Assembly: GCF_006345805.1 (NCBI RefSeq)
Contig: NC_043020.1
Location: forward strand, 24,490,001-24,554,000
Direction: 5' to 3'
Length of the DNA stretch: 64,000 bases
Origin: Octopus sinensis
Lineage: Eukaryota
A program made the translations under genes and the position numbers. Below the pieces are notes generated by a model. That model did not search any database, was not told the origin of the DNA, and was given only the letters and a program-made list of their open reading frames with translations. Shown here piece by piece: positions 7,777 through 57,116 of this stretch (position 1 is its first letter; every line of letters begins with the position of its first letter).

Positions 7777-9266
7777 GGAAAGAATTTAACAAGAACTTCA
7801 GATTATATGATGTAGTCCTGGACAGGAATAGAGATGGTCACTCGGAATCAGGGATCGAATTTGTCGGTGTTTTGCGTACTAATTTCAAATCTCGTCGAGG
7901 CCTTGGTGAGCACGTAGACTCGTTAGCACCTCGCACGAAATGTTTAGCGCATTTCCTCCCAATTATTTACGTTCTGAGCTCAAATAGAGTCGTGGTTAAT
8001 TTTGCCTTTCATCCTTTCGGGGTCGATAAAATACAGTGAAGTGCTAGGGTCGGTAATTGAGTTTCACCTTCTCAAAATTGTTGTTAGAATTAGTATTATT
8101 CCCGGGTCGATAAAATGTAATACAGCAATCAAATGCTGGGGTCGGTTTGATTCTCCAAACGCCTTCCCCGTCTAAATTTCAAGCCTTGTGATTAAAGTAC
8201 CTTGTAGAATTTGCTCCGGTTCTTTATATCTGGGTTCAAATCTTGCCACGTTTTACTCTGGAAATTGTGGAAATAAAGCATCAACATTGTTGAAACAACC
8301 TTAACACCAGATTCAGAATTTCTCCAAGGCTGGGGATCACGTGTCATACGTCCTCGACACATTTCTGGGTCACAAAACCTAAATTCACTGCAACACAAAG
8401 TATTTTCCTCTTTTAAAACATTACCCCCCCCCCCAATAAAATCTAATTAAAAAGACCCCATCACCTTCAAACGAAAACTGGGCAAATTTCTTCAATGGAT
8501 ACCAAATAAGCCACCTACACCTGGATATATTTGAATCAACAACAACTCCATACCTGAATGGCACCTGATACCACAAAACTTTAAAATGACATAACAGATC
8601 TTATCAGGTGGTCCTATTAAGTTAGACATGGCCTGGGCCAATTTTTGACCGAAACGCATCTTTACGCAAGAGACCATCTGCCTGACTTTCCCCTGACCAC
8701 ATACTCACTCACTCTTACCAAAGTATCTTTCGGTGCATGTGCGTGCGTTCTTTCTTTCTTTCTTTTCATCCTTCCTTCCTTTCTTGCTTCTTTCCTTTCT
8801 TTCTTGCTTCTTTCCTTTCTTTCTTCCTTACTTTCTTCCTTTCTTCCTTCCTTTCTGTCTTCCTTTATTCCTTCCTTCCTTCCTTCCTCTTCTGTTTTGA
8901 TTTTTTGTGAGCGAAATCATAATGAAGGCAAAGCATGTGTTGTAAGAGGAGTAGTAATTTGGGTGGTGGGGGTGGCGGAGGCGGCAGAAGCAATGATTTT
9001 GTTGTTGTTATTGCTGTTCTTCCTATTTAGTCGTCCCAAGTTAAATAGCAAGATCAACAACATGGACAATAATCCCTCCCGAACGGACCAGGGTGCAAAG
9101 GAAACACACACACACACACATATATATATATACACACAAACAAACACATACGCACACACATACATATATACATATATTTACACGCGCAAACCCATATATA
9201 CATATACTGGACCACACACAATATAAGAATTATGAGCACACTACTTCCTTCCTGTATATGTGTGTG

Positions 9267-31750: not shown

Positions 31751-32460
31751 ACGTTTTTAATGTTTTTAATGTTTTCCTTCACCAGAAGAGGCGCAGCTGC
31801 ATTTGGGATGTATATAGTGTACCCGGGTGTCATTTATACCATCAAATACGATCATCGTGTCTAATATAGACACATGGCATGCAGTGTTGAGGGTCGAGGT
31901 TGTCGATATCATTGGTCCTAGTATTTATTTTATCATCACCCCCGGACGGTTGAAATGCGAAGCTGACTTCACAAGTATTTGAACTCAGGGGGTAAAGATT
32001 TGGAATAAATACTTCAATGCATTTCTTTTTTCTCGATGCTCAACCAAATCTACCAAGCTCAAGGTCAGAAATGTCATTGAAGAGACAAGTCGATTATACC
32101 GGCCCCTACTATGTAACTGGTACAATATTTTTATCGACCCTGGAAAAATGAAACGCAAAGCCGACCTCAGTGAAGTTTTAACTCAGGACGTAGTGTAACT
32201 CTAGACATTTAGTCTGGACTTTCTCTACGGTCCGACGCTCCAGCAATTTTACACCCAACACAATAAATATCTGCAGAAATTGTGTGTGTGTGTGTGTGTG
32301 AATGTATGTGTGTATATAATCTTACACACATATATATATTATACACACACACACACATACATACATACATACATACATACATACATACATACATACATAC
32401 ATACATACATACTACATATATATATATATATATATATGTATATTATATATATATATATAT

Positions 32461-33395
32461 ATTCAGGTTGAAGACAAGACATAAAAAGCTACACTGAAAT
32501 TTTGCAGGCTACAAAAATAAACGCTAAATTCCTGTCTGGCGATAATATAATGAATGAGAAAAAGTGACAAAAACTTTCCCATAGTTCTCCCCTGCAATAA
32601 AACAGCAATAACAAGCGTCACTAAAATCATTTCATTCTGAAGATAAGCCCTAAAAGGACTTGAAACAACGCAGGACCAAGCAACTTTATTGTTTTCAACG
32701 AAACATATAAATACTAATGAGGGACTGGAACAACAAAAATATTCCTTATTAAAACATGAAAAATATAGGTTAAGACTGGAGAAGTATGGTTATGTTTGGA
32801 ATAATATATTCTGAAAAGAAAGCTGCTCTTAATACACACACATATATAATTAAGCATACATAAAGTTTCATACATATACACACATACATAGATATGTACA
32901 TACACACGTATAAATTCATGTATATATATATATATATATATATATTCAGGTTGAAGACAAGACATAAAAAGCTACACTGAAATTTTGCAGGCTACAAAAA
33001 TAAACGCTAAATTCCTGTCTGGCGATAATATAATGAATGAGAAAAAGTGACAAAAACTTTCCCATAGTTCTCCCCTGCATATAAAACAGCAATAACAAGC
33101 GTCACTAAAATCATTTCATTTGAAGATAAGCCCTAAAAGGACTTGAAACAACGCAGGACCAAGCAACTTTATGTTTTCAACGAAACATATAAATACTAAT
33201 GAGGGACTGGAACAACAAAAATATTCCTTATTAAAACATGAAAAATATAGGTTAAGACTGGAGAAGTATGGTTATGTTTGGAATAATATATTCTGAAAAG
33301 AAAGCTGCTCTTAATACACACACATATATAATTAAGCATACATAAAGTTTCATACATATACACACATACATAGATATGTACATACACACGTATAA
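32461..33395. repeat. Near-perfect tandem duplication, period ~483 bp, bounded by (TA)n
   Basis: attcaggttgaagacaagac starts at 32461 and 32944; the copies differ by a few 1-bp indels. Confidence 0.9.
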
Positions 33396-33402
33396 AATAA
33401 TG

Positions 33403-33471
<69 letters not shown>

Positions 33472-54128: not shown

Positions 54129-54531
54129 GTACCTAAAAGCCTATTTGTATTTTTAAGTGTAAATGCAGACATCTTATATATATTCAGATACACTTGTATA
54201 TATACATGCATGCATATGAACGCATGATTACAGCCCTTCCTCAACAATCACGCACACTTTCATGGGAGATGAAGAGAAGTGTAACGATGTGAGAGAGGGA
54301 TCCAATGTTTTCTCAGTAAATAACAGTGGTAGGTAACGGACAGCTTCAATGTTATTGATGGTAGGTCTGAGATTTGTTTGATGTTGACTTCTCGAAATTA
54401 TCTCTGACTCTCTAATTCCCACAGTCACTCTTTCTCCTTTCTTTCTGCCTCTATCTCTCTCTCTGTCTCTCTCTCCATCTCCCGAACTGATATCATACTG
54501 GGTACATTGTGCTCTCCGTCTATATATATAT

Positions 54532-54576
<45 letters not shown>

Positions 54577-54584
<8 letters not shown>

Positions 54585-55114
54585 TCAATATAGGGTGGCA
54601 AGGAAAATTTTGTAGAATTTTATTGCCACCAGCGGCCCAGTGGGAAAAAATTAAATAGTCATAGACCATTTTAAGTCAACATTAACAATTAAGGAACGGC
54701 CATAATAGGCCATTCACCCACTAGAAATAACAGCCAAAGCTTCTACCGCAAATAAAGATCAATTCCGTAAACAGGAGAAAATTAAAAAAACATTTACCCT
54801 GTAATTTCTTGTACGGTATACCGTTTCATCCGCTGTTTAATGGTAAACTAACCTGATTAAATTAAATCAAGCCAATCTTCCATAAGCCCTCGGATTCTTC
54901 AGCAAGAAATAGCTCAAGTCGGAACAAATATTTACACGAGGCATACCCAATCTTGCCAAGGCAATATCTGACCTAAAATTTTCAAATCGTCGCACTCGCG
55001 CCAAATTTATCGGCAGCAAATAAATATCAGCCGTCGATTCCATTACGGAATTAACCAAAAAATTCATAATTAATCAATATAGGGTGGCAAGGAAAATTGT
55101 TGTAGAATTTTATT
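54577..55114 (-). mobile_element. Inverted ~1.1-unit copy of the same hammerhead-containing repeat
   Basis: Reverse complement of the 55111-57080 unit. Internal period is 489 bp (taatcaatatagggtggca at 54582 and 55071). Starts directly after a (TA)n tract. Confidence 0.9.
54804..54910 (-). ncRNA. Type I hammerhead ribozyme (inverted unit)
   Basis: Plus strand reads tcttcag 54896-54902 (CTGAAGA), gtttc 54823-54827 (GAAAC) and tac 54812-54814 (GTA). Stem I is a perfect 8-bp atttcttg/caagaaat. Confidence 0.85.
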
Positions 55115-55399
55115 ATGGCCGTTCCTAATTGTTATGTTGAACTTAAAAATGGTCTATGACTATTTAATTTTTTCCCACTGGGCCGCTGGTGGCAATAAAA
55201 TTCTACAAAATTTTCCTTGCCACCCTCCCTATATGATTAATATGAATTTTTTGGTTAATTCCGTAATGGAATCGACGGCTGATATTTATTTGCTGCCGAT
55301 TAAATTTGGCGCGAGTGCGACGATTTGAAAAATTTAGGTCAGATATTGCCTTGGCAAGATTGGGTATGCCTCGTGTAAATATCTGTTCCGACTTGAGCT

Positions 55400-55506
55400 A
55401 TTTCTTGCTGAAGAATCCGAGGGCTTATGGAAGATTGGCTTGATTTAATTTAATCAGGTTAGTTTACCATTAAACAGCGGATGAAACGGTATACCGTACA
55501 AGAACT
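55400..55506 (+). ncRNA. Type I hammerhead ribozyme (array unit 1)
   Basis: Stem I ttcttg/caagaa; CTGAAGA 55408-55414; stem II atccg/cggat with a long internal hairpin; GAAAC 55483-55487; palindromic stem III acggtataccgt; GTA 55496-55498. Confidence 0.85.
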
Positions 55507-55882
55507 TACAGGGTAAATGTTTTTTTAATTTTCTCCTGTTTACGGAATTGATCTTTATTTGCGGTAGAAGCTTGGCTGTTATTTCTAGTGGGTGAATGCC
55601 TATTATGGCCGTTCCTTAATTGTTAATGTTGAACTTAAAAATGGTCTATGACTATTAATTTTTTCCCACTGGGCCGCTGGTGGCAATAAAATTCTACAAA
55701 ATTTTCCTTGCCACCCTATATGATTATTATGAATGTTTTGGTTAATTCCGTAATGGAATCGACGCTGATATTTATTTGCTGCCGATAAATTGGCGCGAGT
55801 GCGACGATTTGAAAATTTTAGGTCAGATATTGCCTTGGCAAGATTGGGTATGCCTCGTGTAAATATCTGTTCCGACTGAGCT

Positions 55883-55986
55883 ATTCTTGCTGAAGAATCC
55901 GAGGGCTTATGGAAGATTGGCTTGATTAATTAATCAGGTTAGTTTACCATTAAACAGCGGATGAAACGGTATACCGTACAAGAAAT
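55883..55986 (+). ncRNA. Type I hammerhead ribozyme (array unit 2)
   Basis: CTGAAGA 55890-55896, atccg/cggat, GAAAC 55963-55967, GTA 55976-55978, caagaaat. Confidence 0.85.
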
Positions 55987-56368
55987 TACAGGGGAAATGT
56001 TTTTTTAATTTTCTCCTTTACGGAATTGATCTTTATTTGCTGGTAGAAGCTTTGGCTGTTATTTCTAGTGGGTGAATGGCCTATTATGGCCGTTCCTTAA
56101 TTGTTAATGTTGAACTTAAAAATGGTCTATGACTATTTAATTTTTTTCCACTGGGCGCTGGTGGCAATAAAATTCTACAAAATTTTCCTTGCCACCCTAT
56201 ATTGATTAATTATGAATTTTTTGGTTAATTCCGTAATGGAATCGACGGCTGATATTTATTTGCTGCCGATAAATTTGGCGCGAGTGCGACGATTTGAAAA
56301 TTTTAGGTCAGATATTGCCTTGGCAAGATTGGGTATGCCTCGTGTAAATATCTGTTCCGACTTGAGCT

Positions 56369-56471
56369 ATTTCTTGCTGAAGAATCAGAGGGCTTAGAAG
56401 ATTGGCTTGATTTAATTAATCAGGTTAGTTTACCATTAAACAGGGATGAAACGGTATACCGTACAAGATAT
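56369..56471 (+). ncRNA. Type I hammerhead ribozyme (array unit 3; stem II altered)
   Basis: CTGAAGA 56377-56383, GAAAC 56448-56452, GTA 56461-56463. Stem II reads atcag/gggat here (mutation or assembly error). Confidence 0.7.
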
Positions 56472-56855
56472 TACAGGGTAAATGTTTTTTTTAATTTTCT
56501 CCTGTTTACGGAATTGATCTTTATTTGCGGTAGAAGCTTTGGCTGTTATTTCTAGTGGGTGAATGGCCTATTATGGCCGTTCCTTAATTGTTAATGTTGA
56601 ACTTAAAAATGGTCTATGACTATTTAATTTTTTCCCACTGGGCCGCTGGTGGCAATAAAATTCTACAAAATTTTCCTTGCCACCCTATATTGATTAATTA
56701 TGAATTTTTTGGTTAATTCCGTAATGGAATCGACGGCTGATATTTATTTGCTGCCGATAAATTTGGCGCGGTGCGACGATTTGAAAATTTTAGGTCAGAT
56801 ATTGCCTTGGCAAGATTGGGTATGCCTCGTGTAAATATCTGTTCCGACTTGAGCT

Positions 56856-56958
56856 ATTTCTTGCTGAAGAATCGAGGGCTTATGGAAGATTGGCTTGATT
56901 TAATAATCAGGTTAGTTTACCATTAACAGCGGATGAAACGGTATACCGTACAAGAAAT
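56856..56958 (+). ncRNA. Type I hammerhead ribozyme (array unit 4)
   Basis: atttcttg-CTGAAGA 56864-56870, GAAAC 56935-56939, GTA 56948-56950, caagaaat. Confidence 0.8.
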
Positions 56959-57078
56959 TACAGGGTAAATGTTTTTTTAATTTTCTCCTGTTTACGGAAT
57001 TGATCTTTATTTGCGGTAGAAGATTTGGCTGTTATTTCTAGTGGGTGAATGGCCTATTATGGCCGTTCCTAATTGTTA

Positions 57079-57116
<38 letters not shown>

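Follow-up and report, generated by a model that had tools for sequence, protein, structure and literature searches.

Inverted arms and two fixed ends in a young hammerhead retrozyme family of Octopus sinensis

The insertion and its surroundings

The window, that is, the whole 64,000-nt stretch of the O. sinensis genome analysed here (contig NC_043020.1, positions 24,490,001 to 24,554,000, forward strand), holds an insertion of ribozyme-bearing repeat units between two TA tracts (Table 1). Unit positions are numbered from the first base after the predicted cut. A previous inspection of the letters (the sequence-only reading) had described about five tandem copies. Four of them are indeed in tandem on the plus strand, but the fifth lies inverted on the minus strand and is not part of the tandem. 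The insertion is therefore composed of two arms that meet head-to-head, and its two outer ends lie at different places in the unit, site A and site B.

Table 1. Features of the insertion (positions are those of the window)
Feature	Position	Strand	Remarks
(TA)n target, left flank	54521..54579	.	
Inverted arm, ~1.1 units	54577..55114	-	unit positions 191-492, then 1-238; outer end is site B, the long 'tailed' end
Type I hammerhead motif, inverted copy	54804..54910	-	predicted cut after 54812
Head-to-head arm junction	55111..55114	.	4-nt overlap, microhomology
Direct arm, 4.0 units	55111..57080	+	from unit position 106; outer end is site A (position 132), the short end
Type I hammerhead motif	55400..55506	+	predicted cut after 55498
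Stem I of the 55400..55506 motif	55400-55407/55499-55506	+	
Core of the same motif	55408-55414	+	
Stem II of the same motif	55415-55419/55478-55482	+	with long hairpin
Stem III of the same motif	55486-55497	+	
Hammerhead motif	55882..55986	+	predicted cut after 55978
Hammerhead motif, small stem II defects	56369..56471	+	predicted cut after 56463
One monomer, cut to cut (predicted circle)	56464..56950	+	non-coding, strongly structured; z -4.9
'Tail' segment, ~106 nt	56596..56701	+	between site A (56595) and site B (56701); at one end only of a two-armed insertion
Hammerhead motif, one-base deletion in stem II	56856..56958	+	predicted cut after 56950
(TA)n target, right flank	57079..57102	.	

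Of the 114 long stop-to-stop frames in the window, 45 were scanned against Pfam, with zero matches above the cut-off. At 32384-33428 the window also contains a 483-bp stretch repeated head-to-tail in 2.2 copies, 96% alike and flanked by TA-rich repeats. It has no relation to the ribozyme unit and could be the product of a local duplication or of misassembly.

The hammerhead motif

The GUA triplets previously listed on the plus strand are the cut triplets of Table 1, with spacings of 480, 485 and 487 nt. The CUGAAGA core, the GAAA and the palindromic stem III were likewise found in all five window copies. The stronger claim of a complete hammerhead in every unit holds for the core and stem III, but not throughout for the other two helices: stem II has small defects in window copies 3 and 4, and stem I shows one-base differences in copies 1-3. 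Since small indels are common in the assembly, these defects may be sequencing errors. The minimum free energy structure of the copy at 55395-55512 is a three-stem hammerhead (z -4.3), with 1 of 200 shuffles equally good.

An alignment of 36 natural copies was assembled from the five window copies and 31 other distinct stretches, hand-picked for variety. In this alignment 98% of cells are paired, and 5 of the 35 pairs are altered on both sides. The both-sided changes are in stems I and II, stem III shows G-C and G-U pairs, and core position 7 is A, U or C. None of 500 shuffles reached the covariation score of the hammerhead, which is taken as support and not as a p-value, because related sequences can beat shuffles.

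At the gathering score, an Rfam scan of the window returned zero matches. The proposed comparison with the Hammerhead_1 model bore out the motif in part, with weak matches (21 bits, E 0.06) in two of the five copies and none in the other three; the probable reason is the length of loop II, about 60 nt. Stem III of this hammerhead is 4 bp long, and stem II carries a long hairpin. The presence of the hammerhead repeat is thus confirmed; its self-cleavage is predicted from the sequence, with the compensatory stem changes and the arm ends near the cut (below) as indirect signs.

A young and dispersed family

The genome searched comprises 2.72 Gb in 13,516 contigs. The unit is dispersed across it, as the sequence-only reading had anticipated: a whole-unit search gave 269 matches from the 36 scored of 930 candidates, and the stem III/cut motif has 3,893 exact matches genome-wide (control, 0). 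Exact junctions to TA number 145 for the young short end and 778 for the long end. In total 115 loci were examined, namely the window, 35 loci found by whole-unit match, 40 loci sampled from the 145 short-end sites and 39 from the 778 long-end sites, these last 39 lying without exception on contig 1. From these, 107 insertions were counted; of the eight left out, five were cut by an edge, two had a neighbouring copy picked and one was split by a junction insert. In addition, 8 of 17 motif-variant loci were inspected, and all eight are retrozyme copies. The unit sequence was also matched in public sequencing runs of four organisms.

The 115 loci fall into a young group (76) and an older group (39), about 5-12% apart. 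With about 0.7% substitutions the family is young, in keeping with the 'recent' insertion previously claimed. Most intervals between units (122 of 192) are 489-492 nt. This length had been thought long for an animal unit, but it falls inside the 51-972 bp reported for animal retrozymes (10.64898/2026.07.22.740005; this and the other papers are cited for the portions of their text that were accessible). The unit has a GC content of 36% and is non-coding, its longest ATG frame measuring 66 aa. The predicted circular fold of the copy at L031 has a z of -6.1 (40 shuffles). No ORF is joined to the unit in any of the 115 loci, the 39 B-end loci among them, or in the eight motif-variant loci, and an ORF with RT and GIY-YIG domains, the feature of an autonomous Penelope-like element, is absent from the unit and from between the insertion ends.

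These properties are those of animal non-LTR retrozymes: one type I hammerhead per tandem unit, and short, low-GC, non-coding units dispersed as dimers to multimers, with target-site duplications longer than 4 bp (13-15 bp in L034, L048 and L057). The element is a real, young and abundant retrozyme family. Hammerhead viroids carry a ribozyme on both strands, replicate from RNA to RNA and have no genomic copy. Replication of this 'viroid-like' kind finds no support here, as the minus strand of the unit is without a CUGANGA core and there are thousands of genomic copies. Unlike plant LTR retrozymes, the unit is without LTR organisation. What it would share with both of these groups, and with the newt, schistosome and cricket satellites, are self-cleaving tandem units and small structured circles (PMC7229834), which are predicted here.

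Insertion ends, targets and arm junctions

Two arms are present in 91 of the 107 insertions and a single arm in the other 16. The two-armed insertions are always head-to-head, with the ribozyme-sense 3' ends pointing outward. In all 91, one end lies at positions 105-140 (site A, around 132) and the other at 228-250 (site B, around 238). This pairing is found whichever way the loci were sampled: 28/28 by whole-unit match, 31/31 where the A end was picked and 32/32 where the B end was picked. The permuted ends that had been expected are not seen; the ends are fixed at two sites, always one of each. The longer arm may be either one, and arm length reaches 12.4 units. This arrangement has the 'inverted arm plus tail' signature of Penelope-like elements, with a tail of about 106 nt versus the 30-40 described for them. 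The inverted arm points to a Penelope-like enzyme. In the predicted fold, which is supported by one-sided changes only, sites A and B both lie within one multibranched domain with a closing helix at about 44-57/246-259.

TA-like sequence occurs on both flanks of 94 of the 107 insertions. Informative duplications are those at L034, L048 and L057; six further candidates are mostly TA and, like most other flanks, which are pure TA, uninformative for target duplications. At 31 of the 91 arm junctions the two arms meet in nearly the same unit phase (permutation mean, 12), often at palindromes. In L069, L035, L055, L059 and L082, the junction holds extra short sequence between the arms, templated duplications or repeats such as would result from several rounds of re-priming in end joining. 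An assembly artefact was considered as the source of this anatomy and rejected, given the same ends at 91 loci and the TA loose ends in an independent run, X14, where they lie behind 56595 and 56696.

Evidence on the template

In insertions with both arms at least 2 units long, the two arms agree at all 98 fixed variant sites, none being arm-specific; 11 of the sites are private to a single insertion. Arm differences amount to 0.15% within versus 1.4% between insertions in 36 young cases, and to 0.4% versus 4.8% in 12 old ones. At L060, private changes run through all 14 units. Substitutions common to all units and both arms point to one monomer template. Young arrays also contain 25 cases of partial variants, which have no shared order and mostly lie beside homopolymers. 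At L157 (2782-4195), both arms carry a unit that ends at position 354 and is joined to position 1, the exact cut, so that the hammerhead is lost there. The sequence of this locus is explained best by a single RNA molecule that had been ligated at its cut end and was copied twice.

Two side observations concern the haplotypes. At L057, the changes at positions 412 and 473, both array-wide, compensate each other in stem II and agree with the older subfamily. When arrays are compared, their haplotypes look like mosaics, which suggests recombination between RNAs or cDNAs.

In 32 of the 91 two-armed insertions, neither arm is contained in the other, and some arm pairs have no overlap at all (L083, L076, L079 and L151, for example). 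The 5' ends of the arms crowd behind the predicted cut: 42 of 198 lie within 30 nt past it versus 12 expected (p 1e-12), a count from which 7 of 49 ends that continue upstream on inspection were removed. Among arms of more than 1 unit, 21 of 87 have such an end. The crowded ends are mostly at positions 5-9 and 22-30, and since few are exactly at 1, stalling at structure is as possible as run-off from a cut end. Of 305 copies of the 10-mer that spans the cut, 274 are exact and 22 altered (7%, versus a unit median of 11%).

Coding Penelope-like elements in the genome

The coding elements encountered in this genome are presumably of the Neptune type, a label that we assign from their motifs. A search with an RT fragment of this type from L082 revealed a family that is both large and young, with 150 matches out of 4,604 candidates. 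Members of this family (L092:427-3315; L116-L121) have frames of up to about 960 aa with RT, a CxxC-type linker and GIY-YIG, as well as a hammerhead-like motif in which U replaces C3. Their 3' ends lie in (TA)n, 108-109 nt past their own hammerhead-like motif (eight of eight TA-flanked ends, two of them from the same locus). The second family (L062:6200-10000; L151:4200-4466) is AT-rich, has an inverted 5' arm and ends in a TA tract of about 870 nt that also houses a retrozyme insertion. Both families sit in the same TA tracts as the retrozyme (L037, L119, L062 and L151).

Compared with the large family, the unit has no homology beyond 12-17-nt words, and with the second family (L062) there are AT-rich chance matches only; a coding partner of the unit was not found in these two families. 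Further minimal hammerhead-like motifs were noticed in unrelated repeats of L116 (about 8440-8560, minus strand) and L121 (about 8936, minus strand), indicating additional ribozyme-bearing families in this genome.

RNA and editing

None of the runs that contain the unit is recorded as RNA, and 14 of 19 rows were guessed to be RNA. In four of the runs so guessed the unit is present as contigs, which cannot show a circle; joints or end peaks were not found in these four runs, all of which consist of contigs. Differences in two of them are dominated by A>G on the ribozyme strand (12/21 and 20/34), and in the other two they are not (1/5 and 4/26). The pattern hints at sense-strand transcription with editing, a pattern that alleles or related copies can mimic. 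Over window positions 56936-56980, a contig of low depth in X14, a run that is only guessed to be RNA, shows A>G changes in a cluster that spans the catalytic core and the base at the cut, resembling hyper-editing.

Array-wide variants of young arrays include 15 A>G versus 9 T>C (p 0.03), and the private ones 9 versus 6 (p 0.11), while old arrays have no excess of A>G over T>C (7 versus 10). A>G changes in the helices of the unit keep pairing as G-U. The idea that A-to-I RNA edits are written into every unit of new arrays is doubtful.

Proposed mechanism

The sequence-only reading had proposed a rolling-circle cDNA multimer made by a borrowed reverse transcriptase, and the genomic evidence upholds this: the insertions are dispersed, young, clonal each within itself, and without a joined ORF. 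In the model that we prefer, arrays are likely transcribed on the ribozyme strand. The hammerhead would free monomers, which would then be ligated into circles, a course established in other animal retrozymes. In a (TA)n tract, a Penelope-like enzyme that is probably dimeric would introduce one nick into each strand, the two nicks lying about 10-15 bp apart. Both would prime on a single RNA, one at its site A and the other at its site B. Each enzyme would roll for 0.1 to 12 turns, its run ending when it stalls or when the circle is cut open again by the ribozyme. Microhomology would finally join the two cDNA ends head-to-head, often at short palindromes.

The steps of this model differ in how firmly they can be held. 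The target, the duplications, the paired ends, the clonality, the non-nested arms, the pile-up of ends and the junctions are read directly from the insertions, and the link to a Penelope-like enzyme is drawn from the literature. It is very probable that the retrozyme is moved by such an enzyme, and we are confident, to a good degree, that there are two fixed priming sites on one RNA. The model as a whole, a Penelope-like RT/endonuclease priming twice on one covalent RNA circle, appears reasonably likely. As for each insertion being a frozen record of one RNA circle read simultaneously by the two RTs of a Penelope-like dimer, we incline slightly towards it. A closed circle has no end, so a pile-up at the cut needs re-cleavage or stalling; taken alone, the pile-up is explained more simply by a linear template than by a circle. 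Two polymerases rolling on one circle would require strand displacement. The model also has against it the 16 single-armed insertions, a tail longer than the 30-40 nt reported, the failure to find a coding partner in the two Neptune-type families compared, and in vitro results on related systems, in which Penelope-like insertion did without ribozyme cleavage (PMC11167929) and most predicted Xenopus retrozymes did not cleave (10.64898/2026.07.22.740005).

Twin priming might instead take place on a linear RNA, a multimer with the ribozyme cut as its 5' end; this would be either a part-cleaved transcript of an array that is clonal already or the product of rolling from RNA to RNA. Such a template agrees with the crowding of arm ends just past the cut and with L123, where both arms start exactly at position 1. 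Uncut RNA also fits the clean junctions, and in the only Penelope-like system reconstituted in vitro it was the main substrate, ribozyme cleavage being dispensable (PMC11167929). However, copying of a transcript can only shorten arrays and predicts unit-specific variants common to several insertions, whereas the variants observed are array-wide and the partial cases of young arrays have no common order. A monomer-to-multimer step would therefore still be required, and the minus strand is without a ribozyme core; we regard this route as unlikely. The template could also be a linear monomer whose ends are held by stem I, the polymerase repeatedly jumping the nick. This would account jointly for clonality and the pile-up of ends, and stem I does close the monomer in the consensus fold, but the junction has no excess of gained or lost bases, and a covalent join in the RNA is the simpler account of the identical 354-to-1 junction that the two arms of L157 carry. 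The nick-jumping monomer is accordingly given little credence.

Two explanations dispense with twin priming on a common RNA, and both are highly improbable. An inverted arm produced by fold-back self-priming or from an antisense template, as PMC3846280 suggests for Penelope elements, would be expected to be identical to its partner, and the near-phase junctions, often palindromic, speak for it. It is excluded in the 32 non-nested insertions, where neither arm lies within the other and some arms have no overlap; moreover, the long arm can be either one and the ends follow the sense-strand cut. The other explanation is a satellite, that is, insertion of a monomer followed by expansion and homogenisation at the DNA level, and local tandem amplification has been proposed for vertebrate retrozymes (10.64898/2026.07.22.740005). 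Against it stand the fixed and paired ends, the duplications that flank whole arrays, the variants common to inverted arms and the arm ends tied to the ribozyme cut. Priming twice on one covalent circle by a Penelope-like enzyme remains the reading that we prefer.

Relation to known systems

LINE-1 twin priming involves two target nicks that prime on one RNA, giving an inverted segment joined by microhomology. The same course is proposed here. Unlike LINE-1, the octopus family has start sites that are fixed and internal and lacks a poly(A) tail, and each of its two arms may be many turns long.

A circular intermediate and mobilisation by Penelope-like elements have been proposed for animal non-LTR retrozymes (Cervera and de la Pena 2020, PMC7229834; Li, Clavereau and Pollet 2026, 10.64898/2026.07.22.740005), and circular templates for more-than-unit copying in PMC4209133 and PMC7229834. 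Li and colleagues argue the Penelope link from co-occurrence and Xenopus homology, with no mollusc included; the accessible text of their report calls the mobilisation mechanism unresolved and contains no mention of tails or inverted arms. They also report that 8 of 9 predicted Xenopus retrozymes failed to cleave in vitro. The octopus family resembles the animal retrozymes in its tandem units, which are non-coding, low in GC and furnished each with a single type I hammerhead, in their dispersal as dimers to multimers, and in duplications above 4 bp. It differs from them in the 4-bp stem III and the long hairpin on stem II, and in its anatomy, no two-arm inversion, fixed paired ends or test of within-array clonality being described in the accessible portions of PMC7229834 and 10.64898/2026.07.22.740005. 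Homologous coding partners are known for 24 of 57 Xenopus families in the latter source, unlike here, where none was found in the comparison with two Neptune-type families.

Penelope-like hallmarks are an inverted 5' copy and a tail of 30-40 bp, often at one end only (PMC8557442, PMC3846280); PMC3846280 favours antisense self-priming. The anole Poseidon protein, a predicted dimer, cuts and extends both strands at AT-rich DNA, and two internal RNA start sites delimit the genomic tail (PMC11167929). The octopus insertions share with the endonuclease-bearing Penelope-like elements (Penelope/Poseidon, Neptune and Naiad) the head-to-head inverted 5' arm, the one-end tail, the AT-rich or (TA)n targets, target duplications of similar size and a hammerhead upstream of two internal start sites. 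Unlike these elements, they have no ORF, a longer tail, both arms of up to 12 units, and a full rather than a minimal hammerhead. At the level of sequence the element has the features of an animal non-LTR retrozyme, together with the insertion features of a non-autonomous Penelope-like element.

An octopus repeat annotation (PMC13282606), in its accessible portions, does not mention ribozymes. In a search of mostly open-access literature, neither the family, nor the rule of one A plus one B end, nor within-array clonality was found reported. The retrozyme class is known; this insertion anatomy was not found in print.

Significance

The family ties retrozyme arrays to priming of the Penelope type at two sites and to a monomer template. 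The papers cited here call two questions open: what enzyme moves animal retrozymes, and whether in doing so it rolls on circles; and where the Penelope-like tail and the tandem or inverted structure come from. If the proposed model is true, the Penelope-like 'tail at one end plus inverted arm' would be the offset between two priming sites, and retrozyme arrays would be born full-length by rolling-circle target-primed reverse transcription. The octopus genome offers hundreds of young insertions that obey strict, countable rules: A plus B ends, one haplotype each, and no fold-back in a third of them. With a 490-nt substrate whose start sites are mapped to within a few bases, both questions can be put to a direct test in vitro. 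For work on RNA-templated DNA insertion, too, an RNA so compact would be of interest if it directs double-ended, multimeric insertion into TA repeats.
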